37,650 bases of DNA from a virus, in the IMG/VR virus record IMGVR_UViG_3300045988_143600; one strand, written 5' to 3'. Under the pieces are notes generated by a model that saw only the letters and a program-made list of their open reading frames with translations, was not told the DNA's origin and ran no database searches. The position numbers and the translations under genes are program-made. Below, in pieces: positions 878 through 16,097 of this stretch. Numbering within the stretch: position 1 is the stretch's first letter; the number at the start of each line of letters is the position of its first letter.

Positions 878-895
878 ATCCAAATCCTCCTGTCC

Positions 896-1546: not shown

Positions 1547-1793
1547 AAGCCGTCTTTACCTCCTCTATGATTTCTTCGGCGCAGTTTCTGCAGGTATCAC
1601 GTCCCTTGATAGAGCGCACATTATCAACACTGCCACAATAGCAACAGGTAGGTCTGTGCTTGCGAATCATGATACCGTCCGCTGTCTTCTCGATGTCAAC
1701 AGCCATGCCTCCCGCAAAGCCCGCTGCAAGTCTGATGTCCTTCGGGATCGTCAATCCAGCTTTGCTTGTAAGCTTTTTATGTTTTGTTTCCAT
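1533..1793 (-). CDS. AbrB/SpoVT/MazE-type DNA-binding domain protein with C-terminal Cys4 ribbon
   Basis: LTIPKDIRLAAGFAGGMAVDIEKTADGIMIRK is a swapped-hairpin AbrB-like motif, followed by CCYCGS...CRNC. A strong AAGGAGG RBS precedes the ATG at 1793. Confidence 0.6.
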   Translation of the reverse strand: METKHKKLTSKAGLTIPKDIRLAAGFAGGMAVDIEKTADGIMIRKHRPTCCYCGSVDNVRSIKGRDTCRNCAEEIIEEVKTAYGSV

Positions 1794-1899
1794 AGCGTTT
1801 TTACCTCCTTGTTTTTCTGCACTCTGCATTTATCAGGGCTTGTGACCTGCGCCGATCGGCGGCTGCATTACAGGAGGGGCACAGCCCCTCTGATACTTA

Positions 1900-2064
1900 T
1901 TATTTCTTGTCTACAATTGAGCATTCATTGCATTCTCCGTTACTGTTGCAAATATTATCACAATAGCCGCATTTATCGCAGTACGGACAGTCATCACAAC
2001 TCATTTTCATAAAAAAGGCACATTCTGCGCTGCCTTTCATAAAACATTCAAAATTATTATGCAT
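1900..2064 (-). CDS. Cys-rich small protein (54 aa), below the ORF-track cut-off
   Basis: Hand translation gives MHNNFECFMKGSAECAFFMKMSCDDCPYCDKCGYCDNICNSNGECNECSIVDKK. The start overlaps the stop of the upstream ORF (ATGCATAA). It resembles the ORF at 9778..9948. Confidence 0.45.
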   Translation of the reverse strand: MHNNFECFMKGSAECAFFMKMSCDDCPYCDKCGYCDNICNSNGECNECSIVDKK

Positions 2065-2275
2065 ATTTAGTCGCCTTTACTTTCCTCGGCTCCTCGATGC
2101 GTACCATGTCTATCCAGCGTATCTTATCAGTATATCTATGTACAAGGCAAAGCTGCTTGTCCGTCGCCTTCGAAACCATCCAGTCCGCAGGATCAAGCTT
2201 GTAATACGCTATTATTCGTTTCTGAGCTTTGGTGGGATTTTTTCCGTGCTTCATTCTTTTTGTCCTCCGTTTCAC
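2057..2275 (-). CDS. Small basic hypothetical protein
   Basis: 72-aa ORF immediately downstream of the MuB-like gene, with a Lys/Arg-rich N-terminus. Confidence 0.5.
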   Translation of the reverse strand: MKRRTKRMKHGKNPTKAQKRIIAYYKLDPADWMVSKATDKQLCLVHRYTDKIRWIDMVRIEEPRKVKATKYA

Positions 2276-2278
2276 TTT

Positions 2279-3202
2279 TTATACCGCCATATCCATATAT
2301 TTAGCGATTGCAGACAATCCCTTGGCGGTCACATTGCCGTTATCGAGGGCGTTGGAGTATAGATTGACCGCTCCTCTGATAGCCTGTGGACTTTGAGCGA
2401 TACACAGTAAAAATTCAACAGCAGCAGTGTCCTCTCTGATATCCGGAAAGAGCATTTCGATGTCGCTCTTCTTTATCTGCTTAACGCTGTAAAACCGGGT
2501 ATTCTTCGTCCTGTTGCGTATCTGTGCAAACTCCGCTTTCTGCTTTCCGCCAAGTCTGCTTACCGTGGTTTCGTTGCCGACAAAGCATATTCCAAGGGTC
2601 TGTCCCTTTTCGTCAAAGCAGTCGCAAAGGCTTCGGAGAGTATCAATGGCATTTCTGGTGAGATGCTGGGCTTCGTCCACGATTATCACCATGCCGTCCG
2701 AAAGCTTTGACGAGATTTCCAGCCAGAGTCTGCTCACAGAGCCGGAGGATACGTTCAGCTTAGAACCGATAAGCTCCAGCACGGATTTTGATGACTTGAT
2801 GCACGGATTTACCGTTATGTATATACAGTTTGTGCCGTGCTCACGGTAATACTGCCTGCAAGCCTGTGTTTTGCCTATACCTGCGTCACCGCAGGCTATG
2901 GCAAGACCGCCCTGAAGCTGACAGTTGCGTATGATCTTGTACACGTTAGACGATATTGACGTTTCCTTATAGTCTGTGCCGACATAGATTTCAGCTGCAG
3001 CCTGCTTGGTTACAAAGTATTCAATTACTTTTTTCATCTGCTTATCTACATCGCCGTTGTAGGTACCTGACTTAATTGCAGAGTATGAGCTATCGGATAT
3101 ACCAATCTTTTTGCAGACTGCAGCCGCAGATAGATTTTCCGAGTACTGCAGCTGTTTTATCTGTTCCAATGCCCACTCCTGTTTAGCTGTTAGCTTTTTC
3201 AT
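2279..3202 (-). CDS. MuB-like AAA+ ATPase (transposition target-capture protein)
   Basis: N-terminal HTH-like region, Walker A GDAGIGKT and Walker B IIVDEAQHL. It sits immediately downstream of the DDE transposase. Confidence 0.8.
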   Translation of the reverse strand: MKKLTAKQEWALEQIKQLQYSENLSAAAVCKKIGISDSSYSAIKSGTYNGDVDKQMKKVIEYFVTKQAAAEIYVGTDYKETSISSNVYKIIRNCQLQGGLAIACGDAGIGKTQACRQYYREHGTNCIYITVNPCIKSSKSVLELIGSKLNVSSGSVSRLWLEISSKLSDGMVIIVDEAQHLTRNAIDTLRSLCDCFDEKGQTLGICFVGNETTVSRLGGKQKAEFAQIRNRTKNTRFYSVKQIKKSDIEMLFPDIREDTAAVEFLLCIAQSPQAIRGAVNLYSNALDNGNVTAKGLSAIAKYMDMAV

Positions 3203-3205
3203 TTA

Positions 3206-5224
3206 TTAATCACTCCTCCATTTATTCTTCCGCCTCTCGGCGTTTTCGTTCATTTTATCTATATTGACCACAATATCGTCTCCGGAAGCCTTTGATATAC
3301 TTTCCGGTTCATTATCAGCTCTTATCATAATCACATTGGACGGCATAACGATCTTAAAGCTCTGCTTACCATGTGCTGCCTTGAGAGCGGCAGCCTCCAT
3401 AAGGTCGATCTTATGCTCTGAGTTTAAGCCATCTGTGATATTCTGGGCCTCGGCTTTAATAAACCGTTGTACTCTGCGCTGTAAAGCCATTGCATCGGAA
3501 ATCTCTTCCTTGCTTTCGGTGATGTAATCTATAAGCAGCTTGTCTGCACATTCCCAAGTCCAAAGGTAACGGTCCGATTTATCGTAAACCCTTACGCTTC
3601 TAAGATCGGCGGGATCGTATCTTACATAGACCTCCTCGCCCAGGTGACGGTAAGTGTTTTCATAGTCCATAAACCAGACCTTTTCGCCGGATATTTCAAC
3701 AAATACGCCGTTGCGCTTGATCTTTTGTACCCTTGTTGATCTCATAAGCATAAGATTAAGTTCGGCTTCCGGAGCTTTGCGTATTCCTACAGACTTTATA
3801 TCCATATTCCATACGTCGATACGACTCATTCCTTTGTACTTTGTCTCAGCTCCGCCATATTCCTGCATATTAAAATCACCGTCAATATACATATCAATAT
3901 ATTCTCTAATCTCAAAGTCGCAGGGAATCTTGCCTTCTTTAATTCTACGCTTAAGGCTCTCAGGTCGCTGCATAATAGTGCCGCCGCAGTAACCTTCAAA
4001 CATTCTTGCAAACTGCATTGTGACCGTGCTAAATGTACGCTCAATAGGCTTTGCTTTAGCGTTACGGACGATTGCGTTATGCATCGTGATTCCAAGCCTT
4101 TGGAGTATTGTCGGTGGTTCGATCTCAGGGTTATCGGTTTTCCTGCTTCGATGACCTTTTCCGCCAACGTCATGGGTCATAAACTCTCGACCGTTATCAA
4201 AATATACGGCTTTCGGAATGCCAAATCGCATAATTCCATGCCTTAATGCGATGATTGTTGACTGGGAGTTCGGACTGTCGCATATATTCCAGCCGACCAG
4301 CACTCCGCTTTTGGCATCCAAAAAGGCTGTAAGGTACAGCCTGTGGATCGTGCCGTTATTTTCATCGTAGGACTGTATATCGAACGTGTGGTTATCTGCG
4401 ATCCAGACGTCGTTAGCGTGGAGACCGTCGTACATACGGCTGATATATGGCAGGCATTTATCTTTCATAGCCTTATCGCCGTCGCGCATATATGTAAGCA
4501 CGGCTTGTGGTATTTCCGACTTTATATGCCGCCTGAAAGTATTGTCTGACGGGAAGTTTGATACCATTGACGGATACCACTCTTTTGCACATTCAAGCGT
4601 TAGGTCGTAACAACGCGAAACGGTAGGTTTGTTTTCGGAAAGATAGAAATAGCAAAACTGCTCCCACAGCTCCGGTGGGATACTGCTCTTACCCTTATTG
4701 GCTCCGCCTCGATTTTCACAAAGCCCCTGCAGATTATTATTTCTGTAGGCTGCATACTTGCGGTATAGTATATCCACCGACACTTTGATATCATTATGCT
4801 CGAGCTGACACTTGCCGACGTAAAGCTTATCCACTTCGGTTTTCTTTCCGGGGTATTGATCCCGGTAACGCTGCCAGTCTCTGAGGATATCTACCCAGAG
4901 TGCGATTTCATCACGCTCATCTTCGGAAAACTCTTCGATTGACGTTTTCACAGGCTTTGACGTTTTCACAGGCTTTTTGGGCTGTTTTAATGCATTTTTA
5001 ACAGGCTGTGCAACAAGTTCTAAGCCCGCTTCCGCTCTTTTCTGAGCATAGTATTTTGCCTGCAGGCCTTCGGGGAGTGATGATATTGGGATCATATATT
5101 TAGGACGGTTCCTGTCGTTGATTTCGATATTGCATGACAATTTTCCGTCCTTGCACAGTTTCTTTATATATCGTTCACTGCAGCCTTTAAGATCAGCAGT
5201 TTTGGCAACCGTCAAATATTCCAC
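3206..5224 (-). CDS. MuA-like DDE transposase (rve/integrase core with N-terminal DNA-binding domains)
   Basis: 672 aa. N-terminal HTH (LTVAKTADLKGCSERYIKKLCKDGKL). Catalytic-core motifs VWIADNHTFD and VYFDNGREF. Has the size and MuB-adjacent position typical of Mu A. Confidence 0.85.
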   Translation of the reverse strand: MEYLTVAKTADLKGCSERYIKKLCKDGKLSCNIEINDRNRPKYMIPISSLPEGLQAKYYAQKRAEAGLELVAQPVKNALKQPKKPVKTSKPVKTSIEEFSEDERDEIALWVDILRDWQRYRDQYPGKKTEVDKLYVGKCQLEHNDIKVSVDILYRKYAAYRNNNLQGLCENRGGANKGKSSIPPELWEQFCYFYLSENKPTVSRCYDLTLECAKEWYPSMVSNFPSDNTFRRHIKSEIPQAVLTYMRDGDKAMKDKCLPYISRMYDGLHANDVWIADNHTFDIQSYDENNGTIHRLYLTAFLDAKSGVLVGWNICDSPNSQSTIIALRHGIMRFGIPKAVYFDNGREFMTHDVGGKGHRSRKTDNPEIEPPTILQRLGITMHNAIVRNAKAKPIERTFSTVTMQFARMFEGYCGGTIMQRPESLKRRIKEGKIPCDFEIREYIDMYIDGDFNMQEYGGAETKYKGMSRIDVWNMDIKSVGIRKAPEAELNLMLMRSTRVQKIKRNGVFVEISGEKVWFMDYENTYRHLGEEVYVRYDPADLRSVRVYDKSDRYLWTWECADKLLIDYITESKEEISDAMALQRRVQRFIKAEAQNITDGLNSEHKIDLMEAAALKAAHGKQSFKIVMPSNVIMIRADNEPESISKASGDDIVVNIDKMNENAERRKNKWRSD

Positions 5225-5272
5225 ATCATCACCTCCCGAAGTTACTTGACAAAACTAATGTTTTCTGATATA

Positions 5273-5476
5273 CTAAGTATCAGAGCCAGAACGGTTGTTT
5301 ACGAGGTCGGACAGAAAATCTTCTGTTTCGGTCAATACTGCAAGAATGGTCGCAACATTCCTGCGGAGCTGTTCAGGCTCTATTTTTATGTCCTCAAGGC
5401 AGCTTGCCTGAGCCAGAAGCCGGGCTTGTCCCACCGCATGAGACAGTACTTGTGTTTTAAATTCCTTGTATTTCAT
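5273..5476 (-). CDS. Hypothetical early protein (67 aa)
   Basis: ORF with an AAAGGAAG RBS, directly upstream of the transposase gene. Confidence 0.5.
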   Translation of the reverse strand: MKYKEFKTQVLSHAVGQARLLAQASCLEDIKIEPEQLRRNVATILAVLTETEDFLSDLVNNRSGSDT

Positions 5477-5495
5477 TGGTTACACTTCCTTTCTC

Positions 5496-5536
5496 GGTCT
5501 GCCATCATCAGTACCGGGAGACCGTCCCCGGCAGAC
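5496..5536. repeat. 41-bp direct repeat, copy 1
   Basis: GGTCTGCCATCATCAGTACCGGGAGACCGTCCCCGGCAGAC is identical to 6152..6192. Confidence 0.95.
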
Positions 5537-6151
5537 CGAACCGCCTGTTGCGGCTCGGTTTCGGCTAGAAAAATCGGAATGTATAAGTCTACTCCTTCCG
5601 AAAGAGTACCCTGCGCACTTATACTGCGTTGCACAACCTTGTCGACTAGGTTGATTGAGTTGGCTTTCACATCAGGACTTGCACCTGATAGGCTTACGCT
5701 TGCGAACCTAGCACTATGCGTGAACATTTAGCCGCCCCGATTATTACCGAAACGGCAAGGTAGATAGGATAAAAAGTTATCCTAAGTGGGTCTGATACGC
5801 TCAGACGGGCGGTATCTTTATGTTGTCTTTAGACTGTGTTATAAAAATACAAAAGACGTTCCAGCTGGTGCAAACATTAAGCTCATGCGCTCTCAGCTTG
5901 CATTTACGAGTTCGCACCTTAAGGAAAGTCGGAACCCTTATAACAAAACCTGTACCTCGGCTAATTCAACCCGACGACACGTAGCCAGAACACGTGGTTT
6001 TTAAGTCATACGCTACCGATATTTTATGTCCTCGGTCTACAGACTGTATGACAGGCTTGGTTCAAGATCTAAGTCGTTACCTCTGAGCTTGCAAGCTGCA
6101 GGTGATTCACTATATCCCCTATGGCGGGCAAGCACGGCACCTGCATATTTT

Positions 6152-6192
6152 GGTCTGCCATCATCAGTACCGGGAGACCGTCCCCGGCAGAC
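6152..6192. repeat. 41-bp direct repeat, copy 2
   Basis: Identical to 5496..5536. It abuts the stop codon of the Ner-like gene. Confidence 0.95.
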
Positions 6193-6199
6193 AGCCGAG

Positions 6200-6427
6200 T
6201 TACTGTCGGCTGTTCCGGCTGTTTCGTGATCTGCCGCACAAATCGTCAAGACTGCATTGCAGCACATTGGCTATCCTGATCGTAGTCTTAAGAGAGGGCG
6301 TCAAAACGCCCTGCTCTATCTTGCACACGGTCACATTGCTGATCCCCGCATACTTAGCAAGCTCTCTCTGATTAAGATCACGCTGCTCTCTAATCTGCTT
6401 TATGCTTTTCCCAATATCTGCGCTCAT
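6200..6427 (-). CDS. Ner/Cro-like XRE-family HTH regulator
   Basis: IKQIREQRDLNQRELAKYAGISNVTVCKIEQG is an HTH_3 motif. AAAGGAGGGA RBS precedes the ATG at 6427. It lies in the early operon, divergent from the repressor. Confidence 0.75.
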   Translation of the reverse strand: MSADIGKSIKQIREQRDLNQRELAKYAGISNVTVCKIEQGVLTPSLKTTIRIANVLQCSLDDLCGRSRNSRNSRQ

Positions 6428-6623
6428 AAAGGCGTTCCCTCCTTTTAGCAAAGTATATATCTCTGATAAGAGAGAGGATAAGGTGCATACAGATCAATCC
6501 GGATAGTGTAAGCAACGGTATGATCCAGAACTCGGAATGTCCGCTAAGACTTGTTATGGCACACCATAGCATGATAATGGCAAACATGGTAAGCACCTTT
6601 CCCTCGTCCGTAAGTTTTTTCAT
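6390..6623 (-). CDS. Small membrane protein (2 predicted TM segments)
   Basis: Hydrophobic stretches MFAIIMLWCAITSL and IIPLLTLSGLICMHLILSL. GGAGG-like RBS. The 3' end overlaps the Ner-like start. Confidence 0.5.
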   Translation of the reverse strand: MKKLTDEGKVLTMFAIIMLWCAITSLSGHSEFWIIPLLTLSGLICMHLILSLIRDIYFAKRRERLYERRYWEKHKAD

Positions 6624-6635
6624 AATAAACCCTCC

Positions 6636-7088
6636 TTACTTATACATCATAACGGTGATAACGTCTTTAGCGGCAGCAAGCGGACTGTCTCCTGTGATGC
6701 CTATATCATACACATGACCGTTCTTCATGGTTACAAGCACCCACTCTTCTCCGTTGTCTTCGCAGTAAGTTATATCATCAACATCATCATTGGCGGCATG
6801 GAGCAGGAAGTAGAGCTCTTTTTCTACGAATAAAGCTTTATTCATTATATATCCTCTTATTGCCGGAGTTTGTTCCGCCCTTGTTTGTTGCTCGCCGTAT
6901 TTTTCAGCTATGCAATCAAGATCATCATCTATTGCTGCCTTAGCATCCTCGATTGTATTATAAGCCTTTGGCGAGAAAGCCCCGTAAGGTGATATGCAAA
7001 CATAGCCTATCCTATCGTTACCTGATATCGTATAGCCTCTGTACTCATACATATTCACATCGGTTTCCTTAATCTTATACTTATTCAT
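6636..7088 (-). CDS. Hypothetical protein, first gene of the early operon
   Basis: 150-aa acidic ORF with an AAGGAGGAA RBS, immediately downstream of the predicted early promoter. Confidence 0.55.
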   Translation of the reverse strand: MNKYKIKETDVNMYEYRGYTISGNDRIGYVCISPYGAFSPKAYNTIEDAKAAIDDDLDCIAEKYGEQQTRAEQTPAIRGYIMNKALFVEKELYFLLHAANDDVDDITYCEDNGEEWVLVTMKNGHVYDIGITGDSPLAAAKDVITVMMYK

Positions 7089-7113
7089 TAAAATTCCTCC
7101 TTTTTCGATTGAC

Positions 7114-7175
7114 GTTTAACGCTTTTTGTGTTAAACTTAATTTATCATGGGGTAACTATGCCCTAGAGGTTACCC
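7114..7175. promoter_or_regulatory. Operator-like inverted repeats in the repressor/early switch region
   Basis: GTTTAAC(N9)GTTAAAC at 7114-7136 and GGGTAAC(N12)GTTACCC at 7150-7175, between the early promoter and the first early gene. TTCTAA(T/C)T half-sites are repeated at 7199-7245. Confidence 0.5.
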
Positions 7176-7183
7176 TATAGTAA

Positions 7184-7212
7184 ATTATAACTAGATTTTT
7201 TCTAATTGTCAA
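7184..7212 (-). promoter_or_regulatory. Early promoter (consensus sigma-A type), minus strand
   Basis: The minus strand reads TTGACA-(17 nt)-TATAAT exactly, with the -35 at 7207-7212 and the -10 at 7184-7189. It faces the early operon. Confidence 0.65.
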
Positions 7213-7280
7213 GTGAAATTCTAACTCGAAATTAGAAAAATGCTAATTTCGTGATAAGTAACAAAGGAGATGATTGAATT

Positions 7281-7982
7281 TTGGATATTTTGGATAGAAT
7301 AACTATGCTTTTAGGCAATCGAGAGCAAAAAGAATTGACTAATTACCTGAAATTAAATAATGTTGCTTTTTCAGAATGGAAGTCTGGGAAAAGCAAATCA
7401 TATAGAAAATATCTAATTGAAATTGCTGAATTTTTTGATGTTTCAATAGATTACCTTGTTTACGGCAAAGAAAAAAGCTCACCAGCGGAACAGTTGACCG
7501 ATGATGAGCAAGAGTTACTTACATATTATAAGGAATTAGATTTAATGAAAAAGGGTCAAGTCCTCGAACGTGCCAAGGTCCTTTTTGAGCAGTCAAAAAT
7601 ACCATTAAAAGAGCTTGAAAACAGTGTTTTCATAGAGTACTATTCGTTGCCTGTCAGTGCCGGAACTGGCGTTGATCTGGATGGCTGCGAAAAAGGTATG
7701 TTGGAGGTTAAGAAAACGCAGCTCACTCTTGAGGCTAATTTTGCTCTAAGAGTGTCTGGCAACAGCATGGAGCCTGTATTCCACGACGGAGACGTAGTTC
7801 TGATAGCCTCGCAGCCATCTGTTGAGATCGGCGAGATAGGCATTTTTATACTTAACGGGGAAGGATTTATAAAGAAGTTCGGCGGAGATCGCTTGATTTC
7901 CCTTAACCCGGATTATGATGATATTCCGCTGCATGATTATGATAGTATCTATTGCCGGGGAAAGGTTATTGGAACTGTATGA
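7281..7982 (+). CDS. CI/LexA-type repressor (N-terminal HTH, C-terminal S24 peptidase)
   Basis: HTH region at the N-terminus. The C-terminus LRVSGNSMEPVFHDGDVVLIA...GEGFIKKF carries the Ser/Lys dyad context of S24 autopeptidases. Transcribed divergently from the early operon. The TTG start at 7281 is uncertain; ATG at 7305 is an alternative. Confidence 0.8.
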   Translation: MDILDRITMLLGNREQKELTNYLKLNNVAFSEWKSGKSKSYRKYLIEIAEFFDVSIDYLVYGKEKSSPAEQLTDDEQELLTYYKELDLMKKGQVLERAKVLFEQSKIPLKELENSVFIEYYSLPVSAGTGVDLDGCEKGMLEVKKTQLTLEANFALRVSGNSMEPVFHDGDVVLIASQPSVEIGEIGIFILNGEGFIKKFGGDRLISLNPDYDDIPLHDYDSIYCRGKVIGTV

Positions 7983-8065
7983 TATAAAAATATGAAACTA
8001 AGCAACTTGTGCTTGATCTTCCGACTGTAGTGATTGTTCGAGCCGCACAGTGGGACATTGATAAG

Positions 8066-8089
8066 TTAATGGGAACTAGTTCCCATTAA
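8066..8089. repeat. Perfect 24-bp palindrome downstream of the repressor gene
   Basis: TTAATGGGAACTAGTTCCCATTAA. Followed by TAGTTCC repeats and a tandem ATTTTTCAAT(N3)ATTTTTCAAT at about 8128-8153. Confidence 0.7.
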
Positions 8090-8267
8090 TCGAATTTTTA
8101 GTTCCTATATTCCCGTATAAAATATGGAAATTTTTCAATGAGATTTTTCAATTGAACATTCAAACTATTTTATAAACGTTATAGCTTTAAAATGCGTAAA
8201 TACGCTGTTTTGTGACAATTTTAAAATTTGAAAACAGTTCTAAAACGTTCTAAAAAGGTAAAATTTA

Positions 8268-8316
8268 AAGGTCTTAAAATGCTTTTAAAATTGCATTTTA
8301 AGACCTTATTTTTTTG
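8268..8316 (+). terminator. Rho-independent terminator-like hairpin inside the phage left arm
   Basis: 15-bp perfect stem AAGGTCTTAAAATGC / GCATTTTAAGACCTT with a 10-nt loop, followed by ATTTTTTT. Confidence 0.6.
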
Positions 8317-8420
8317 ACATTCAATTTTCTTATCCGCAAAGCACGTCAACTTTTTGCATATTCAAACCGCCGCATTTGCGCCACTTTCGTGGGTTTTCTA
8401 TGCTAATTCCGAGTTATTCC

Positions 8421-8459
8421 GCATTTTTGCGTTTTTCGGATTTTGCGTGGCGAGCAACA
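8421..8459. repeat. Mu-like left terminal inverted repeat with sub-terminal TTTTGCG motifs
   Basis: The reverse complement reads TGTTGCTCGCCACGCAAAATCCGAAAAACGCAAAAATGC, which matches the right end at 23 of the first 29 positions. It ends in CA on the plus strand. Confidence 0.75.
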
Positions 8460-8667
8460 TCCTCGTGCCTTTAAATTTGTGATAATAAACATAAGATAAA
8501 CAGATACTTACCCGGTGGCTTCTTTAGTGCCAAAACTCTAAGAAAGTTTCATAGAGTGCTACCTATTATGCACACGTTCACGGCTACTACCTACCATTCG
8601 AGACTTTTCCGTTTCAGGCTGTCGTCATTCACCGATTTAATCGTAGTTATCTTTATGTTCGAGGACT

Positions 8668-8747
8668 TAGTACAATAATGTACTACCGACATATATAATA
8701 TACCCCATTTTTGTACTATTGTCAATAGAACAATTATGTACTATGAT
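8668..8747 (+). promoter_or_regulatory. Promoter/operator region of the XRE repressor gene
   Basis: Palindrome TAGTACAATAATGTACTA at 8668-8685. Near-palindrome TTGTACTATTG-T-CAATAGAACAA at 8711-8733, overlapping a TTGTCA -35 (8719-8724). After a 17-nt spacer comes TATGAT (8742-8747). A further TGTACTA lies at 8737-8743. Confidence 0.55.
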
Positions 8748-8777
8748 ATAATTTGTATAAATAAACAAATAAGTGAG

Positions 8778-9083
8778 GTGATTTTTATTAATTATTATCA
8801 AAGACTTAGAGATTTAAGAGAGGATATGGAACTAAATCAAAGCATGATAGCGAAAATTCTTGACACTTCTCAAAAGCAATATAGTAGGTGGGAAACAGGT
8901 GAATATCCTATCCCATTTGAAAAAGTTATACAGTTAGCAAAATTTTATAAAGTGAGTATTGATTATATAGCAGGACTGACGAATGACAAAAGGGGAATAG
9001 GCTACAAAGCAGACAGTAACAGCAAATACAACATAACACAGCAGAATAATAATAGCGCTGTTGTAAAAATTAAGGAGAAATAA
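8778..9083 (+). CDS. XRE-family HTH repressor of the inovirus-like element
   Basis: NYYQRLRDLREDMELNQSMIAKILDTSQKQYSRWETGEYPIPFEKVIQLAKFYKVSIDYI is a canonical HTH_3 domain. The start is uncertain. The ATG at 8736 lies upstream of the predicted -10. GTG at 8778 or ATT at 8787, after a GTGAGGTGA RBS, is more plausible. Confidence 0.7.
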   Translation: MIFINYYQRLRDLREDMELNQSMIAKILDTSQKQYSRWETGEYPIPFEKVIQLAKFYKVSIDYIAGLTNDKRGIGYKADSNSKYNITQQNNNSAVVKIKEK

Positions 9084-9317
9084 ATGTTTGGTTTAGACAA
9101 GACTTTAGCATATATACTTATAGGACGAATTATCATAGATGCGTTAATCTTTTTGCTTATTATTTATCTAATCTGCAAATTTCTTGACCTTTGCAAAACT
9201 GTTAATGATCTTTCAAAGAGGAACAAGGAGCAAACGGAACTATTGAAACAGCAGAATGAAACGCTTGTGAAACTAGGGCAAATCATCATAAAGATAAACC
9301 AAGACAAAGACGGATAA
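9084..9317 (+). CDS. Small membrane protein with C-terminal coiled coil
   Basis: TM segment LAYILIGRIIIDALIFLLIIYLI. Translationally coupled to the XRE gene (TAAATG). Confidence 0.55.
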   Translation: MFGLDKTLAYILIGRIIIDALIFLLIIYLICKFLDLCKTVNDLSKRNKEQTELLKQQNETLVKLGQIIIKINQDKDG

Positions 9318-9329
9318 CAAATCACAATC

Positions 9330-9698
9330 CACACTTCAAGCCGTCGCCTAAACGGCGAGGATACAAAGTGCTGACCACTACGGATTAAAGTTGAGAAGCG
9401 GTGCTTGTTTGTAGCTCCGATATGACACAATCAGAACAAAGGGAACGCACAGCCTTGCGACAGTGTGCAGACCTGCACCCCAGAGGTGGGCGCGTGGCGA
9501 TGTCACACAAAGTTTTTCACTGCGTTCAAAACTTTGGCGACCGCCACTCAGGCAGGGGGCAGGCAAGGCGCACAGCACAGCTTTGTGCGCCCTGCACCCT
9601 CAACATTTAATGCTTCGGACATAAAAAACGCCCTGCGCACTTCGTGCGTGGGCTTGGGGTGGTAGAGGTCGTCGGTTCAAATCCGGTCACTCCGACCA
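9330..9698 (+). ncRNA. GC-rich structured non-coding island (candidate ncRNA or host-derived att arm)
   Basis: Nested perfect helices at 9494-9499/9542-9547, 9508-9516/9528-9536 and 9567-9574/9584-9591. A UUCG-type capped stem at 9632-9652 has G-U pairs valid only on the plus strand. CTGCACCC is repeated at 9473-9480 and 9592-9599. No convincing ORF is present. Confidence 0.3.
9655..9698 (+). other. tRNA-like 3' fragment / minihelix (T-arm, acceptor 3' strand, discriminator, CCA)
   Basis: GTCGG-TTCAAAT-CCGGT (T-arm) followed by CACTCCG-A-CCA. TGGGGTG at 9655-9661 can pair with the acceptor 3' strand. No D arm or anticodon arm is present, so this is not an intact tRNA. Confidence 0.45.
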
Positions 9699-9707
9699 AT
9701 ATGTAAA

Positions 9708-9742
9708 AACGGCTTTCCGCTATTGTGGAGAGCCGTTTTTTT
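9708..9742 (+). terminator. Rho-independent terminator directly after the tRNA-like CCA end
   Basis: 11-bp stem AACGGCTTTCC / GGAGAGCCGTT (one G-U pair) with an 8-nt loop, followed by a T-run. Confidence 0.75.
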
Positions 9743-9777
9743 AGTTGAATAGTGCTAAAGATTTTCACAAGTAAATA

Positions 9778-9948
9778 TTAATCATCATAACAAGGTACAG
9801 AGCAATTCTCACAAGCAGGAGAATCTGTAAGATAAAATATACATTCCTCACAGTGGGCATAACAACAACAGTTATCATAATCGCATACCTTATCGGCACA
9901 TTCGCCATGGTCAGTATTTTCTTTACACCAAAAATTAAACTCTTTCAT
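9778..9948 (-). CDS. Cys-rich small protein (56 aa)
   Basis: MKEFNFWCKENTDHGECADKVCDYDNCCCYAHCEECIFYLTDSPACENCSVPCYDD. AAAGGAG RBS precedes the ATG at 9948. It resembles the ORF at 1900..2064. Confidence 0.5.
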   Translation of the reverse strand: MKEFNFWCKENTDHGECADKVCDYDNCCCYAHCEECIFYLTDSPACENCSVPCYDD

Positions 9949-10000
9949 TTTAAAAGCTCCTTTATTATTCAAATTTGAGATTATTCACAGCTTTGCACAT
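9943..10000. repeat. 58-bp direct repeat, copy A (partner at 10202..10259, 2 mismatches)
   Basis: TTTCATTTTAAAAGCTCCTTTATTATTCAAATTTGAGATTATTCACAGCTTTGCACAT. It duplicates the last codons of the integrase gene plus the RBS and start of the next ORF. Confidence 0.9.
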
Positions 10001-10207
10001 TCAGAAATCATTTTGAGAAAAACGCTCCTTGAGTTTTTTACGATTGACGATATACAACTCAGACAGGCTACACATTGAATTCATCAGAAGTCGACGTAAT
10101 TCATCCATATCAGCAGTAACGCACATACGATTTATAGAACCTTCGAGCAAATCAGCGAGATTCATAGTTTCTTTATGTTTTTGCTCCGTATAAAATTTAC
10201 TTTTCAT
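10001..10207 (-). CDS. Hypothetical small protein (68 aa)
   Basis: This ORF lies between the two 58-bp repeats. It has the same RBS and MK start context as 9778..9948. Confidence 0.45.
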   Translation of the reverse strand: MKSKFYTEQKHKETMNLADLLEGSINRMCVTADMDELRRLLMNSMCSLSELYIVNRKKLKERFSQNDF

Positions 10208-10259
10208 TTTAAAAACTCCTTTATTATTCAAATTTGAGATTATTCACAGCCTTGCACAT
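10202..10259. repeat. 58-bp direct repeat, copy B
   Basis: Partner of 9943..10000. Covers the integrase 3' end (…CKAVNNLKFE stop). Confidence 0.9.
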
Positions 10260-11114
10260 CTGATTAAAATTGCTATGTACATAACGCTGGGTAGTTGTTA
10301 TATCAACGTGTCCGAGCAATGCTCTAAGGGTTTCAATATCTGCACCGCACTGAATAAGATACGTAGCATAGCTATGTCTAAGCTTGTGCGGGGTGAGATA
10401 CTGTAAATCAGGATACTTTGTTTTTTGTTGCTCATAGAACGTTCTATAGAGCCTGTTATAACGTCTAAGAGATATTACTGTATGCGTTATAGGTGAAACG
10501 AACAGAAAGCCGTCTGAAACGTCCTGAGAGCGTATCTGATGAAGAATAGCTATTGCATTACTATGCAAGGGGATAAGCCTATCACGGCGAGATTTTGTGG
10601 TCTGTACAATCCTATCACCGCATGAAGTATGTACGAGTGTCTGACAAACTTTAAGATATCTGTTATCAAGGTCAATGTTATCCCAACTAAGAGCGAGAAG
10701 TTCACCACGGCGGAGACCTGTCTACAAGTCAAGCTGAAACATTCTGCAAACTCTACTATCATCATCAAAGAGATGTACGAGATTATCGGGGCTAAAATAT
10801 TCAGCTTCTTTTTTTATACGTTTTGGAGGTTTAATATAGTCGCAAGGGTTTTTGTCACAATAACCATTAACTATAGCTTCACGGAATACACGTTTAAGTA
10901 AGAAATATGAACGTCTTTGGCGGTCATTACTGTAAGATAGGGTGGATTTAAGACAATTCTGAATATCAATAGGCTTTACGCTCAGAAGCTCCATATCGGC
11001 TATATAACCGAAGTGTTTTTGATTTATATAGTAATAGTCCTTATAGCAATCATAGGCTATCACATCAACGCAGTATGCGTTATAGAACATCTCAAACCAT
11101 TCTTTAAAAATCAT
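10224..11114 (-). pseudogene. int: Tyrosine recombinase/integrase interrupted by a single in-frame TAG (10719..10721)
   Basis: The two track ORFs, 10722..11114 and 10224..10568, are in the same frame. Reading through gives ...MFQLDL*TGLRRGELLALSWDNIDL...HKLRHSYATYLIQCGADIETLRALLGHVDITTTQRYVH, which contains the R...HxxR...Y catalytic signature. Confidence 0.75.
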
Positions 11115-12112
11115 AGGACATCATCATTTCCATTCTCTTTAAGATATTGAAGTATATCATTGCAGTTCTTTTCGACTTGACTTGAAAAGGTGAAACTACT
11201 TTCATACTGATAACAGACATTAGCACGAGGGGGAGAAACTATCGGCAAATCGTCTTTAAAGTCTGAATTGCAAAAGATCTCTTTAGTTTTGCGGACAATG
11301 TTCTTGCTACTCCAGAAGAATTTGCCGAATATCTTCTTTACGTCCTTTGTTATGTACTTAGTGACATAGAAAGCTAAATTAGACATTTGTCCGTAAGTCT
11401 GAATAGCGGTTGAGAAACCATAACGCCAATCAGACACGTTATACACAACAGGCAAATCAGATATATCACAGCCGAGTTTATCACATATATGCAGGCGCTT
11501 TATAGTATCTATTTTAAGGGGCTTGTCATGACCCTTAACAAGACGTGTACCACTATCAACGAACTTAAAGTCACAATCGTTTATAAGGGCGTGGCAATGT
11601 ATACCGCCTTTTTTGTGATACTCAGGAACTAAGATATATTTAAGCCCTTTTCTACTAACTGCATTTTCAAGCCATTTTTTCAAAGGCTTTATGACTTCTT
11701 TAGGGTTTGTGCGGTCAAGGTTATCGCCATTAAAGGTAATAGTAAGGAAGTATTTCCAATCATTTTGATAAACTATATCAAAGATACTTTGCTTTGCTCT
11801 TTGAACACTATCGGAACGAACTTCACCGCTTTGTGACTGCTTATCTTTAAACTTACGAGTATCAAGCATATCAAGCATTATGTTTCCGTTTTCGTCCTCA
11901 TACTCAAAATAACATATGTAATTTTCACGAGCCGTTTTAAGTTGCTCTTGTCTTGAACGTTCGTCAATACTATGCTCATGCTTGCAGTGATACTCAAATG
12001 CAGGGTCTTTAAATATGTGTCGATCAGAACGTGTTATAGTGTAACTGCCGTCACGATATTCCTTTATCTTTGTATTGCACTTGACCTCTTTAGAAGACAT
12101 TTTTAGGGACAT
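11111..12112 (-). CDS. HUH rolling-circle replication initiator (Rep)
   Basis: Motif 1 is FLTITF, motif 2 (HUH) is GGIHCHALI and motif 3 is YVTKYITK. GGGAG RBS. Confidence 0.75.
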   Translation of the reverse strand: MSLKMSSKEVKCNTKIKEYRDGSYTITRSDRHIFKDPAFEYHCKHEHSIDERSRQEQLKTARENYICYFEYEDENGNIMLDMLDTRKFKDKQSQSGEVRSDSVQRAKQSIFDIVYQNDWKYFLTITFNGDNLDRTNPKEVIKPLKKWLENAVSRKGLKYILVPEYHKKGGIHCHALINDCDFKFVDSGTRLVKGHDKPLKIDTIKRLHICDKLGCDISDLPVVYNVSDWRYGFSTAIQTYGQMSNLAFYVTKYITKDVKKIFGKFFWSSKNIVRKTKEIFCNSDFKDDLPIVSPPRANVCYQYESSFTFSSQVEKNCNDILQYLKENGNDDVL

Positions 12113-12148
12113 TTATATCAACTCCCATTTATTAGGTGAGTGCTTTTT

Positions 12149-12223
12149 GTGGCTAATATCAAGTAATAGCCACACGCACCGCAGGGCGGCGCAAGCGCTC
12201 GCCCCTGCGGTCGCTCGTGGCTA
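12149..12223. promoter_or_regulatory. GC-rich hairpin cluster, candidate rolling-circle origin or packaging hairpin
   Basis: Alternative stems TGTGGCTA (12149-12156) / TAGCCACA (12167-12174) and TAGCCAC (12167-12173) / GTGGCTA (12217-12223). The second pair encloses CCGCAGGG (12179-12186) / CCCTGCGG (12203-12210). This is the only GC-rich stretch in an AT-rich element, and it lies between the Zot-like stop and the Rep start. Confidence 0.5.
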
Positions 12224-13015
12224 TACGCCACGCCTTTTTCGCAGGTTTCTGCTTGTCTTTCTATCGTGCATGATGTCACTTGTGACATCTACTCCACGAT
12301 TGGCAAGTATTTCCGTGTCGCTGATGTACTCCTTATCAAGCATATTATCTACAAGCTGAGAAGTATCATATAGCTGTCGACTCTGATTAGTCTGCAAATA
12401 CAAACGGCTGTAAAGCTTTTTCGGCATATATGACTTATTCTCCGTATACGCTTCATACTCGTCTATATCATAGGTTTTAACCTTAATAAGACGTGTATAA
12501 GGGTGATGGAATGTAGCACGGCACGTTGACACTGTAGCCGTTATATCTCGTATCTGTTTATCAAGTAGATTAAATCGTTGCACTGTAGCAAGTATCATCA
12601 TTTTGCGCTTTCTACATTGACAAAGGTGCTGAAAAAGCGGTTTAGAGACGGCTCTTTTACCACCTGAGAAATCTCGTGAATTGAAGATAGTGCCTATCTC
12701 ATCAATTACGACTATACAATTCTTAGGAGCGTGCAGGATATCTTGTGCGGAATTAAGCTTATAAATATTCGTCCACTCAGGGAAGTTTTGAAGATTGATA
12801 TTTGTAAGTATAGACAACTGAGGATAACGCACGCAATAGTTATATGCTATCTGAGCAAGGGTTGAGGTTTTACCTGTTCCGAATTTACCGGTATAAAGAT
12901 GTATGCCCCAACCTTGAAAGATAGCGGAATTATTGAAGTATGCACCAAAAAGGTGGTCATATACCTCATAGGTGATAAAGGGCGGTATTTGTTTTATGTA
13001 GTCAAATATAATCAT
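12221..13015 (-). CDS. pI/Zot-like P-loop morphogenesis ATPase
   Basis: Walker A is GKFGTGKTS and Walker B is CIVVIDEIG. Size and position after the small TM genes are as in inoviruses. No clear C-terminal TM segment was seen, so the assignment is by family resemblance and context. Confidence 0.6.
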   Translation of the reverse strand: MIIFDYIKQIPPFITYEVYDHLFGAYFNNSAIFQGWGIHLYTGKFGTGKTSTLAQIAYNYCVRYPQLSILTNINLQNFPEWTNIYKLNSAQDILHAPKNCIVVIDEIGTIFNSRDFSGGKRAVSKPLFQHLCQCRKRKMMILATVQRFNLLDKQIRDITATVSTCRATFHHPYTRLIKVKTYDIDEYEAYTENKSYMPKKLYSRLYLQTNQSRQLYDTSQLVDNMLDKEYISDTEILANRGVDVTSDIMHDRKTSRNLRKRRGV

Positions 13016-13025
13016 AACAAATCAC

Positions 13026-13235
13026 CTACACAGCACTTGCACAACGTGTCATGCGTATCATCACATTATAAAAGAACTTGCAGAAGATACAAAGCATAAC
13101 CACAGCGAATATAAATGCCATGCCGAGGAGCAAAGCGTCATATCTATTCATGACTTCTTGCGAGAGATCACAGCCCATTGACTTCAAAAGCTGAAAAAAT
13201 GGGTTATTTTCATCAAACACTATGTGTACTTTCAT
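13026..13235 (-). CDS. Small membrane protein
   Basis: 69 aa, with the TM segment ALLLGMAFIFAVVMLCIFCKFF. Confidence 0.45.
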   Translation of the reverse strand: MKVHIVFDENNPFFQLLKSMGCDLSQEVMNRYDALLLGMAFIFAVVMLCIFCKFFYNVMIRMTRCASAV

Positions 13236-13449
13236 TATCGTTCACCTCACAATCATCAGTTTCAACCGCAGGAACGGCTTTTATTTCAACATCTTCACCG
13301 AACATAAGAAACTCTATAAGCTGTTTTCTGTTTCCGCTGAACTCATGTTCAGCTTTAAAGTTTCTAAGGTCAGTGAAGAAACCTATAACACCGCTTATAG
13401 TACAAACCATAAAGCAGACAACGAGTATAAACAAAACCAAGTTAAGCAT
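13213..13449 (-). CDS. Small membrane protein (78 aa from ATG 13449)
   Basis: A strong AGGAGG RBS precedes MLNLVLFILVVCFMVCTISGVIGFF. Confidence 0.5.
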   Translation of the reverse strand: MLNLVLFILVVCFMVCTISGVIGFFTDLRNFKAEHEFSGNRKQLIEFLMFGEDVEIKAVPAVETDDCEVNDNESTHSV

Positions 13450-13453
13450 TTTT

Positions 13454-13528
13454 CTACCTCCTAACGAGCCATACAAGAGAAAGGACCATAAGAGCAACGA
13501 GGACAAATAAAACAATATTTACTAACAT
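13454..13528 (-). CDS. Tiny hydrophobic peptide (24 aa), pVII/pIX-like by size only
   Basis: Hand translation gives MLVNIVLFVLVALMVLSLVWLVRR. It is tightly packed between neighbouring ORFs and is too short for confident calling. Confidence 0.3.
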   Translation of the reverse strand: MLVNIVLFVLVALMVLSLVWLVRR

Positions 13529-13535
13529 AATAAAC

Positions 13536-13700
13536 CTACTTTCTAAGCATAAAATATAATAAAGTCAAGCTGATTGATAAAAGCATACCGCCTATAATAG
13601 CCGAACCGAGAGTAAAACTGTATTTGCCAAATGGAAACGTATAAGACATACAGTTCATCAGGAATTTAAAAACTAATTCAATACCATGTATTATATCCAT
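13536..13700 (-). CDS. Small membrane protein (54 aa), pVI-like position
   Basis: Hand translation gives MDIIHGIELVFKFLMNCMSYTFPFGKYSFTLGSAIIGGMLLSISLTLLYFMLRK. The GAGGTGA RBS overlaps the stop of the pIII-like gene. Confidence 0.45.
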   Translation of the reverse strand: MDIIHGIELVFKFLMNCMSYTFPFGKYSFTLGSAIIGGMLLSISLTLLYFMLRK

Positions 13701-13708
13701 AATTCACC

Positions 13709-15463
13709 TCACGTAGGTAAAACAAGCTTGATAAGCGCAATAGCTAAGAACAGCACAAACCATGCAGAGAACACAGCATAAAACCATGACGGCAAACAAG
13801 AAAGAGCGGCGGTGAGAAAATCCCAATATGTACCCGTTGTACTGAATATAGATTTTATATCCGTGAAATCAACAGAGCCGAAATTTGCATTAATTTTTTT
13901 CTTATCAAGATATTTGTTATAATCATCAGGTTGCATATATGAACCATCATTTATAACACCATCTGAACCCTTAGCAAGGTCAACGTCAGTGACCTTTGAC
14001 GGCGGTATATTACACAAGTCTTTAAGCTTTGTAGTCGAGGGATTATAAGTATTTCCGTCCTTGTCTTTATATACTTTAGGTACATAATCAGGAAACTTCT
14101 CATAAGAGAAAGGGTCTGAAATAACAGAATAAACACGATAAGCCTTGAATGTTTCAGGCTTGCCTGTTTCTTCATCAACGGACTTTACAAAATCATCAAT
14201 CTTCTCACACGTCTTAAGGTTTGTAAAATCTTCTTGATAGGCATACGAGCCGAGCCACGTTGAAGAATTTGTATCTTCTGTTTTTTCACCATTCTGAGGA
14301 GTAACATGACCGTTATTCTTTACAAATACACCGATAACATTAACATAAAGCTTGCTATCATCAGTAAGACCATGTGTTTTATAATCAATAGAAGTGAGAT
14401 CAAAAGATACAGTAATCTTGCCGTCACGAGGAATAGTATAAATAGGCGTTCGACCTTGATATAATGTTAAATACGGCTCAAAAGTATCAACAGTATCATT
14501 ACTATTCAAATCGTCAGAAGAAGAGCCGTCAGACTTAATTTTTTCATCATCTTGACCCTTGTAGTAATTGCCGTCATGGTTCATTGCATAAAGCACAACA
14601 TCTTCATCAAAGAAACGTTGTAGATCATCACCAGCGTTAAGAAGATTTTTTGAAAGACAACATAAAACGGCATAAGTGCCAGAGCCGTAAGCTTTTCCTA
14701 AGTCTTTTTCATTGAACGTTTTTAAAAACTCAGGTGAAAGCTTTATATCAAGGTTTATATTATTATTTTCAGCTGCTACAAGTCCATTTTCATCAGCATT
14801 AGCACCACCCTTTGACGGATAGTAAATTTTATTTTGCATATTCAATGAAAGTTCAGGTGTATATGTAACAGTAAACGGAGCAGGAACAACGGTGGGGTCT
14901 GTAGGGGTTACATCTTTATCAGGGTTAGACCAATCATAAACCTTAGCATTATGATAATAAACATAGGTATCAGCACCATTATCAGAATCGACACCAACGT
15001 GCATAGCAACACCGCAACTAACACTGGATATATCACCTATATTGGCAGAAAATTCAAAAAGACTAGATTGAGCTTTAAATACAAGTTGATTTTTATCATT
15101 ATAGCGATAAACATACCGATATGTTTTGTTGTCATCAGAATGACGATGATAATTTGAAATATAAAATTGTGATTGATTCAAAGTATCTATATCACCGCCG
15201 CTCAAATTAAGGTAAAATTTTTGAACAGTGTCAGGAACAAGATATATAAGAGAGTACTCTTTGCGGTTAGGCGAATAAAAGGCTATATATGAATCGGGTG
15301 TAAAACCCAAGTCAGAATTTATTTTTTTCAACGCCATATCAATAAAAAGTTTCATACCACCAGAACCATCAGACTGCTTTAAAGCGAATGCAGGAACAGC
15401 ACAACATATCATCACAACAAGTGCAGAGATCATACACAACACTTGCTTAATCTTTTTTCTCAA
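13709..15463 (-). CDS. pIII-like minor coat/adsorption protein (signal peptide plus C-terminal membrane anchor)
   Basis: The N-terminus MRKKIKQVLCMISALVVMICCAVPAFA is signal-like. The C-terminus WFYAVFSAWFVLFLAIALIKLVLPT is a membrane anchor. It is the largest ORF and follows the coat gene, as gene III does in Ff-type phages. TTG start. Confidence 0.55.
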   Translation of the reverse strand: MRKKIKQVLCMISALVVMICCAVPAFALKQSDGSGGMKLFIDMALKKINSDLGFTPDSYIAFYSPNRKEYSLIYLVPDTVQKFYLNLSGGDIDTLNQSQFYISNYHRHSDDNKTYRYVYRYNDKNQLVFKAQSSLFEFSANIGDISSVSCGVAMHVGVDSDNGADTYVYYHNAKVYDWSNPDKDVTPTDPTVVPAPFTVTYTPELSLNMQNKIYYPSKGGANADENGLVAAENNNINLDIKLSPEFLKTFNEKDLGKAYGSGTYAVLCCLSKNLLNAGDDLQRFFDEDVVLYAMNHDGNYYKGQDDEKIKSDGSSSDDLNSNDTVDTFEPYLTLYQGRTPIYTIPRDGKITVSFDLTSIDYKTHGLTDDSKLYVNVIGVFVKNNGHVTPQNGEKTEDTNSSTWLGSYAYQEDFTNLKTCEKIDDFVKSVDEETGKPETFKAYRVYSVISDPFSYEKFPDYVPKVYKDKDGNTYNPSTTKLKDLCNIPPSKVTDVDLAKGSDGVINDGSYMQPDDYNKYLDKKKINANFGSVDFTDIKSIFSTTGTYWDFLTAALSCLPSWFYAVFSAWFVLFLAIALIKLVLPT

Positions 15464-15480
15464 TTTATCAACTTCCTTTC

Positions 15481-15517
15481 AAAAAAATTAAGCGGAGCAA
15501 TTTGAATTACTCCGCTT
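15481..15517 (-). terminator. Rho-independent terminator between the coat gene and the pIII-like gene
   Basis: The minus strand reads AAGCGGAG-(12 nt)-CTCCGCTT followed by AATTTTTTT. The placement is analogous to the terminator after gene VIII in Ff phages. Confidence 0.65.
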
Positions 15518-15533
15518 ATGTAAATGGTTTTGC

Positions 15534-15689
15534 TTATACAGCGTGTCTGAACTTTGCGAAAAGTCCTGCACCAGAGCCGAGAAGAGACAGACCTACAAGA
15601 ATTGCAATAGGTACGTTGCTTGTCATAGCGTCCCAACAAGAACCAAAAACAGTAACGGCATTACTAAGCATTGTTGTTACAGCTTCCAT
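15534..15689 (-). CDS. pVIII-like major coat protein (51 aa), below the ORF-track cut-off
   Basis: Hand translation gives MEAVTTMLSNAVTVFGSCWDAMTSNVPIAILVGLSLLGSGAGLFAKFRHAV. It has an acidic N-terminal part, a single TM helix and a basic C-terminus (K, R, H). AAAGGAG RBS. Confidence 0.6.
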   Translation of the reverse strand: MEAVTTMLSNAVTVFGSCWDAMTSNVPIAILVGLSLLGSGAGLFAKFRHAV

Positions 15690-15743
15690 TATTAGCAAAA
15701 CTCCTTTCTTATTAAATTTTTATAACAGCGGTTTCACCGCTAA

Positions 15744-16061
15744 TTATTTTGTGTTGCGGTGAAGTGTTCCGTCTGCATTGATTACGGTGATATCAACAAG
15801 CTGAGAACGTCCGTTAAAAATCTGATAGTTCAGCATTACATCACAGCCGAGAAGCTTATTGAAATCCTCAGAATTTCCGTTAAGTCTGATTGCATTTTCG
15901 GTCGGTATTTTCAGTGTATCGACCATTTTTCCATGACAGTCGGGGTTATCAACTTCCTGCAGAAGCTGAAAGACGACCTTTTCAGGGCTGTTTATCTGCT
16001 TGCCCTCTATAACTCCGTTAAATGCTTTCTTTTTTGTCCAGCCTACGATAGTTGTTTTCAT
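15744..16061 (-). CDS. First gene of the structural operon; possible gene V-like ssDNA-binding protein (by position and size only)
   Basis: 105 aa from the ATG at 16061 (MKTTIVGWTKKKAFNG...). It lies upstream of the coat gene, as gene V does. No motif-level support is available. Confidence 0.35.
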   Translation of the reverse strand: MKTTIVGWTKKKAFNGVIEGKQINSPEKVVFQLLQEVDNPDCHGKMVDTLKIPTENAIRLNGNSEDFNKLLGCDVMLNYQIFNGRSQLVDITVINADGTLHRNTK

Positions 16062-16097
16062 GTTTTTTTCCTTTCTGAGGTTTTTCGGCTTTTCCTC

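Follow-up and report, generated by a model that had tools for sequence, protein, structure and literature searches.

How does a Mu-like phage come to be assembled as a closed circle together with the genes of a filamentous phage, and does that circle exist as a molecule? The question is posed by the IMG/VR virus record IMGVR_UViG_3300045988_143600, a stretch of 37,650 nucleotides (the window). Its last 55 bp repeat positions 1-55 directly, which gives a 37,595-bp circular assembly made up of 29,957 bp of Mu-like phage, a 7,633-bp inovirus-like element that was the target of its insertion, and a second copy of the sequence TCCTC. All DNA outside 8460-16097 belongs to a single Mu-like transposable phage. 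An initial annotation of the window had taken the target to be a circular filamentous replicon. The circle does close through the inovirus-like unit, but a replicative form is not demonstrated, and the unit has the organization of an integrative prophage. We favor a reading in which a complete element of gut Oscillospiraceae received the Mu-like phage once, the insertion was inherited, and the composite exists primarily as a chromosomal nested prophage; we regard this as probable, though well short of certain.

Boundaries of the Mu-like phage and the empty site

Both ends of the Mu-like phage can be placed to the base. Ten other insertions, fetched via its repressor, share the left end through ...GCGAGCAACA (window 8459) and are unrelated from the next base. 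Ten other insertions, fetched via its last gene, are unrelated until the base before TGATGTTTGAC (window 16098). The termini read 5'-TG...CA-3' and carry imperfect terminal inverted repeats. An independent insertion in the complete genome AP031427.1, for which both flanks were recovered, has its own 5-bp duplication, TTTGC. The window is laid out as follows.

8460-8464: target-site duplication copy 1, TCCTC, adjoining the left end of the Mu-like phage
8465-8735: divergent control region of the element, which with 16062-16092 forms a 306-bp intergenic region divided by the Mu-like phage
16093-16097: target-site duplication copy 2, TCCTC, adjoining the right end of the Mu-like phage
16098-37650, minus strand: Mu-like phage, right end through late genes, continuing at 1-8459
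1-8459, minus strand: early region and left end of the Mu-like phage, with a MuA-like protein of 672 aa and a MuB-like protein of 307 aa
7281-7982, plus strand: S24 repressor of the Mu-like phage

Removing the phage and one TCCTC leaves precisely the 7,633-bp remainder that had been predicted. A 120-bp empty site rebuilt from 60 bp on each side and a single TCCTC matches uninterrupted copies of the element at 120 of 120 positions in four related loci (L006, L007, L008 and L011). Uninterrupted copies of the element with an exact empty site thus exist; among the 53 IMG/VR loci of close relatives none has a terminal repeat, and only the more distant L101 (below) does. An exact scan of IMG/VR for the empty site gave one occurrence. 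Junctions between phage and element identical to those of the window were found in at least three other assemblies checked, all from other samples (L001, L009 and L010), and the composite recurs in human gut samples of several cohorts. The left junction was absent from IMG/VR and JGI metagenome contigs in an exact scan. The element is, as originally noted, more AT-rich than the phage (GC content 37.4% versus 43.6%).

The insertion point lies 32-36 bp upstream of the ATG of the first structural gene, which encodes a 105-aa protein. The 29,957-bp phage transposed once into the 306-bp divergent control region, duplicating TCCTC. This single event has since been inherited, the same junctions recurring across assemblies.

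Integration at tRNA-Pro(GGG) and the probable host

Large chromosomal contigs carry the element in the order 9653 to 16097 followed by 8465 to 9747 of the window, with colinearity breaking at 9653 and 9747. ARAGORN places a host tRNA-Pro(GGG) exactly at the left boundary, attL. There the 5' half of the tRNA gene is joined to 9748 onward, and at attR position 9652 is joined to the host flank TCAAAATATTC.... The exact repeat is 57 bp long (9653-9709), is the same at attL and attR in L007 and L011, and begins at position 32 of the tRNA. Two features of the window define the site.

9653-9709, plus strand: attP core, comprising the 3' half of tRNA-Pro(GGG) at 9653-9698 (anticodon loop to CCA) and 11 further nt
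9710-9747, plus strand: terminator hairpin downstream of the tRNA part, 5A/7T in attL and attP versus 6A/6T in attR

The terminator hairpin is homologous between attL/attP and attR and not identical, with small indels. These junctions show the element to be an integrative prophage: its tyrosine recombinase inserts it at the 3' half of tRNA-Pro(GGG), which serves as the att core. Neither ARAGORN nor Rfam, at gathering thresholds or at E<=1, called a full tRNA, tmRNA or known RNA gene at 9330-9705; the tRNA-like end went uncalled because the window holds only the attP copy of the 3' half.

Hominimerdicola aceti and a Ruminococcus metagenome-assembled genome (Oscillospiraceae, Clostridia) both encode an ATPase 99% identical to that of the element. 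This points to a host among human-gut Oscillospiraceae, either H. aceti or a related Ruminococcus. The family of filamentous prophages that targets tRNA-Pro is very common in Oscillospiraceae, and single proteins of the element occur in thousands of blocks of the assembly collection: the exact sequence of its 77-aa protein is present in 1,025 blocks and its 105-aa protein in 6,115.

Neighboring and variant copies were also seen at these sites. In L008 (7560-7650), a copy of the lineage whose integrase carries an in-frame TAG (see below) abuts the 3' end of a different tRNA (...GGTTCAAATCCGG/CTCCCGCAACCA), which points to integration in another tRNA gene and to a crossover within the T-arm region. 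A second, different inovirus-like element lies beside tRNA-Met/tRNA-Pro in L006 (1-1817), L015 (940-8779 and 18422-20318) and L021 (16628-20318), encoding a 265-aa Zot ATPase, a Rep of 334 or 399 aa and an integrase of 330 or 302 aa. Arrays of this kind are frequent, and because the second element adjoins the first, the tRNA locus acts as a landing pad for arrays of filamentous prophages. In L016/L017 two copies of a related variant lie in tandem, with an uninterrupted attP-type junction.

Gene content of the inovirus-like element

Twelve of the 14 genes in the 7,633-bp element lie on the same strand, and eight have no family match. The main features are given below (TM, transmembrane segment).

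8736-9083, plus strand: XRE-family helix-turn-helix regulator, 115 aa as called (HTH_3, 1.4e-12; PHROG 8, 4 and 3 repressors)
9084-9317, plus strand: 77-aa single-TM protein, from hydropathy
9330-9652: GC-rich structured block, immediately 5' of the att core, with a fold z-score of -4.4
9778-9948, minus strand: 56-aa Cys-rich protein
10001-10207, minus strand: 68-aa protein, in a segment variable among relatives
10224-11114, minus strand: tyrosine integrase pseudogene, one frame of 296 codons, matching Phage_integrase
11111-12112, minus strand: HUH rolling-circle Rep of G2P/ORF2 type, 333 aa (PF23343 REP_ORF2-G2P; PHROG 3419)
12113-12220, minus strand: three conserved, GC-rich hairpins directly upstream of rep
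12221-13015, minus strand: Zot/pI-like morphogenesis ATPase, 264 aa (Walker A GTGKTS, Walker B VVIDE)
13026-13235, minus strand: 69-aa single-TM protein
13213-13449, minus strand: 78-aa single-TM protein
13536-13700, minus strand: 54-aa single-TM protein
13709-15463, minus strand: 584-aa protein with signal peptide and C-terminal anchor (N- and C-terminal hydrophobic segments)
15489-15518, minus strand: intrinsic terminator after the 51-aa gene, a 13-pair hairpin and T-run
15534-15689, minus strand: 51-aa coat-like protein with acidic N-terminus, one TM and basic C-terminus
15744-16061, minus strand: 105-aa protein, first gene of the structural operon, in the gV position

Read along the minus strand, the order is the 105-aa gene, the 51-aa gene with its terminator, the 584-, 54-, 78- and 69-aa genes, the ATPase, the hairpins, Rep, the integrase and two small open reading frames. 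The inventory claimed from the first reading (Rep motifs, hairpins, ATPase, small TM reading frames, the 584-aa protein, the 51-aa protein with its terminator, and the XRE regulator) is present throughout. The profile searches it called for place both the ATPase and Rep above the curated thresholds of inovirus morphogenesis and replication families. Rep scores 56.9 bits against PF23343 REP_ORF2-G2P, for which the cut-off is 27.8, and its translation shows FLTITF, HCHALI and YVTKYITK, the HUH and Y motifs. The ATPase scores 33.9 bits against Pfam Zot (PF05707; cut-off 20.3) and matches PHROG 1675, 'protein I of M13', at 1.7e-10 and PHROG 197, Zot-like, at 5.4e-10. No TM is predicted in the ATPase (maximum Kyte-Doolittle value 1.13 in a 19-residue window), which sets it apart from the Ff-type pI architecture, where one protein joins an N-terminal ATPase to a C-terminal membrane-spanning segment. 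The 51-, 54-, 69-, 78- and 77-aa proteins each have one hydrophobic segment, at 2.0-3.0 on the same scale and window.

Roux et al. 2019 describe inoviruses by a pI-like ATPase marker, single-TM proteins of 30-90 aa, and short genes that are mostly orphans (PMC6813254). Judged from its genes alone, the element has a Zot/pI ATPase, single-TM proteins of 30-90 aa, a small genome and a G2P-type Rep, and this supports its assignment as a complete inovirus-like unit. The G2P-type Rep would replicate it by rolling circle from the hairpins upstream, and the ATPase would presumably act with the small TM, coat-like and anchored proteins to assemble and extrude a filament.

By its position, the 584-aa protein may be the analogue of pIII. 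Homologues in close relatives are 556-584 aa long, and the N-terminal-proximal part of the gene (about 14915-15383) cannot be aligned among relatives that are 93-97% identical elsewhere, a pattern that would be expected of a receptor-binding domain. Neither the 51-aa nor the 584-aa protein has a family match in Pfam or PHROG, and Pfam at E<=1 returned only noise for these and for the other small proteins. The 105-aa protein has no sequence match in Pfam, PHROG or PDB. A structural model was considered as a guide to a gV-like role for it and set aside, the single-sequence AlphaFold2 prediction having an unusable pLDDT of 40.9; the role is positional only. Searches of the element gave no match in NCBIfam and, at the nucleotide level, none among GenBank phages or PLSDB plasmids. 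The true start of the XRE regulator may be later than called.

The hairpins upstream of rep are near-invariant across 19 variants. One compensatory double change, from G-C to A-T, keeps a stem paired, and the third hairpin, GTGTGGCTA/TTACTTGATAT/TAGCCACA, is invariant. They are a good candidate for the rolling-circle plus-strand origin. The block at 9330-9652 occurs in 38 distinct variants at 87-97% identity with a few double-sided pair changes, and is a candidate minus-strand origin or packaging signal.

Condition of the copy in the window

The integrase named in the initial annotation does match Phage_integrase, but its frame is broken by a single in-frame TAG at 10722-10724 (W131*), and this copy of the element has no intact integrase gene. 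Fourteen relatives have TGG at this codon and encode 296 aa. Reassignment or suppression of TAG was considered and rejected: the relatives have TGG there, and three other genes of the element use TAG as their stop. The integrase TAG is therefore a nonsense mutation and not recoding.

The best promoter-like sites of the element, which are consensus matches only, are at 8725-8697 on the minus strand (11/12) and 8719-8747 on the plus strand (10/12). The best candidate and the structural operon lie on opposite sides of the 30-kb Mu insertion, and a long hairpin with a U-run is found at the right end of the Mu-like phage (16196-16135, minus strand). We infer that in this copy the structural and replication operon has been severed from its promoter. 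In this lineage the filamentous element is probably no longer functional.

Physical status of the 37.6-kb circle

In at least two contigs from other samples, this composite runs out into host chromosome. L001 terminates in 154 bp identical to the chromosomal attL flank, consisting of the tRNA-Pro 5' half and the sequence upstream of it (as in L007, L011 and L018), and L010 terminates in 154 bp identical to the attR flank of L007 and L011, where the transposase gene of an insertion sequence (IS) follows. In L007, a second transposase gene lies upstream of attL. IS copies flanking the prophage probably break assemblies, hence contigs that end at about 38 kb. L001 and L010, both from other samples, thus show the chromosomal flanks that had been named at the outset as grounds for giving up a self-closing unit; this contig does not. 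Twenty-one contigs encoding the 77-aa protein were read. Fourteen are apparent composites by shared gene neighborhood (13 group with L010 and one is L009), and the seven that exceed 50 kb have the element but no Mu-like phage. Closure of the attP type was seen only in L009 and the window, the latter being the second example.

The two transposase genes of L007 lie at 1786-2718 and 10778-12352 (rve family; DDE_Tnp_1/DUF772), close to the prophage on both sides. L010 and L011 stop 154 bp past attR, and L001 stops 154 bp past attL.

Several points weigh against a primarily chromosomal composite. The window and L009 both run from 9652 through the att core to 9748, and the contig is cut inside the Mu-like phage and not at the core. 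A conservative assembler would normally need reads that span the junction, and so it is quite possible that a real circular or tandem form was present in the sample. Among the 13 contigs of the L010 group, the end was read in L010 alone. The promoter and terminator assignments are matches to consensus only.

Since the exact att repeat (57 bp) exceeds the assembly overlap (55 bp), closure could have come about by true excision, from a tandem array or through a collapsed repeat. An excised circle is possible and would require an integrase acting in trans or homologous recombination. A tandem junction is possible too, as is a 57-bp repeat collapsed in a k=55 graph. Because the cut point falls inside the Mu-like phage, the assembler traversed the att junction, which favors an excised circle or a tandem junction. 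Repeat collapse is favored by the length of the repeat relative to k and by both host flanks reaching IS copies within about 15-150 bp. If the composite is primarily chromosomal, as we favor, closure would stem from a minority of excised or tandem forms or from the att repeat having collapsed, and not from a maintained 37.6-kb replicative form.

A tandem prophage array, in which head-to-tail copies at tRNA-Pro with the Mu-like phage in one or every copy were rolled into a circle by the assembler, is in our view unlikely. The related element in L016/L017 does form a tandem pair joined by an uninterrupted attP-type junction, and inovirus-like arrays are common at this tRNA locus (L006, L015 and L021). 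However, the lineage with the TAG integrase has no tandem copy in L007, L008 or L011, and a mixture of empty and Mu-occupied copies should branch at TCCTC instead of giving a clean 37.6-kb cycle.

It is quite unlikely that the composite is a free episome, with the Mu-like phage in a filamentous replicative form and the 37.6-kb circle real, maintained and replicated by the Rep of the element. Such an episome would fit the circular contig with its 55-bp overlap and its cut point within the Mu-like phage, and the attP-type junction in the window and L009. Many contigs of the element family fall in the 5-10 kb class, and a distant relative of about 8.2 kb, L101 (IMGVR_UViG_3300021540_000003), is circular (8,331 bp with a 127-bp terminal repeat). 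The ATPase of L101 is 59% identical to that of the window and the C-terminus of its 584-aa homologue 26% identical; tblastn found no homologue in it of the window's Rep or integrase. Set against this, L001 and L010 carry this composite with chromosomal att flanks at their ends, the 53 IMG/VR loci of close relatives all lack a terminal repeat, 30 kb of Mu-like phage lies between the rep operon and its best promoter candidate, and neither the plasmid nor the phage collections gave a match. With its integrase inactivated by a nonsense mutation, the element would need help in trans to excise.

A bolder version, which we think very doubtful, makes the real 37.6-kb circle a Mu-like phage carried on a rolling-circle filamentous replicon that shuttles between tRNA-Pro and an episome and is perhaps exported as a very long filament, which would let a transposable phage spread by a second, non-lytic path. 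If the circle were real, it would be an unusual hybrid replicon.

Least likely of all is that the 7.6-kb unit is non-viral, an integrative rolling-circle plasmid or mobilizable element that merely carries a Zot-like ATPase: its coat-like, pIII-like and 105-aa proteins have no family or structure match, its ATPase lacks the TM of Ff pI and it is known here from genes alone, but the Zot/pI and G2P Rep matches exceed curated cut-offs, the anchored 584-aa protein is hypervariable like adsorption proteins, and the five single-TM proteins of 51-78 aa, the gene order and the terminator after the coat gene are inovirus features (PMC6813254).

Comparison with known filamentous and transposable phages

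Canonical inovirus prophages have their att site in a tRNA or beside the integrase, and the integration of inoviruses at tRNA genes has been described as a class (PMC6813254). The element resembles Gram-positive and metagenomic integrative inoviruses (Tubulavirales) in size (5-15 kb), in short genes nearly all on one strand, and in its pI/Zot ATPase; also alike are the single-TM structural proteins of 30-90 aa, the rolling-circle Rep, the tRNA att site beside a tyrosine recombinase and the lack of a secretin gene. Clostridium phage CAK1 and Propionibacterium phage B5 are examples of such inoviruses in culture. The element differs from integrative inoviruses in having no nucleotide match in phage collections, an ATPase without TM and orphan structural proteins, and this copy differs further in its integrase nonsense pseudogene and in a control region split by the Mu-like phage.

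With the Ff phages (M13, fd and f1) the element shares a G2P-family Rep, a pI-family ATPase (PHROG 1675), hairpin-rich non-coding DNA by rep, and a small coat gene whose terminator precedes a large anchored adsorption protein. Ff phages, in contrast, do not integrate, have no integrase/XRE module and infect Gram-negative hosts. Ff pI has a TM segment and the pIV secretin as its partner, whereas the element has no secretin gene. CTXphi of Vibrio cholerae is likewise an integrated filamentous prophage with a Zot ATPase. CTXphi requires a tandem arrangement to make virion DNA without excision. Tandem copies comparable to its own occur among relatives of the element, in the L016/L017 variant, and were not seen in the lineage of the window. 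CTXphi uses host XerCD at dif, while the element has its own tyrosine integrase for a tRNA gene.

The inserted phage is like Mu in its TG...CA ends, imperfect inverted repeats, 5-bp duplication and many unrelated sites, in its MuA-like, MuB-like, Mor, GemA and Gp27 domains, and in an S24 repressor at the left end. It differs from Mu in length (about 30 kb versus 37 kb), in its Clostridia host, in two type II hammerhead ribozymes and in having another prophage as its target.

What is new here is an integrative prophage of gut Oscillospiraceae with attP at tRNA-Pro(GGG), an integrase changed from TGG to TAG, and a Mu-like phage lying between the likely promoter and the structural operon. Tidy as it is, this nested prophage is fairly ordinary: almost any site can receive a Mu-like phage, and an occasional landing in a resident prophage is therefore to be expected. 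Its value is that of a cleanly delimited prophage within a prophage, with ends, duplication, empty site, att site and host, in an abundant and little-studied lineage of gut Clostridia, and as a record of a very widespread family of filamentous prophages that target tRNA-Pro. It also carries a warning: when the att repeat of another mobile element is close in length to the assembly k-mer, closure via that element can make a 'circular' viral contig of a tailed phage. A phage genome and its size are not defined by circularity alone.

Spread and RNA motifs of the Mu-like phage

Its TG...CA ends, 5-bp duplication, many unrelated insertion sites and MuA, MuB and regulator genes all place the inserted phage among Mu-like phages. 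Precomputed Pfam assignments on identical or near-identical genes in the loci are HTH_Tnp_Mu_2, rve, DDE_2, Mu-transpos_C, AAA_22, Mor, GemA, Phage_Mu_Gp27 and Peptidase_S24. The phage occupies many unrelated chromosomal sites. An identical 987-aa protein of the phage occurs in 3,681 blocks of public assemblies, in 2,002 of which the longest contig is 20-50 kb. MT835795.1, a human fecal 'Bacteriophage sp.', matches the phage at 99.7%. Look-ups with a tape-measure-sized protein of the phage and with the 56-aa protein of the element gave chromosomal contigs of the longest class only.

The early region has two type II hammerhead ribozymes, at 5493-5566 and 6149-6220 (minus strand, the same as the early operon), with scores of 57.7 and 57.0 bits (gathering score 37) and a spacing of about 580 nt. 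They flank small open reading frames that some relatives have lost: the 84-aa and 75-aa genes are absent from L023, L024, L029 and L030. A RAGATH-28 RNA motif is found at 35779-35870 (minus strand), at 46.9 bits against a gathering score of 45.3.

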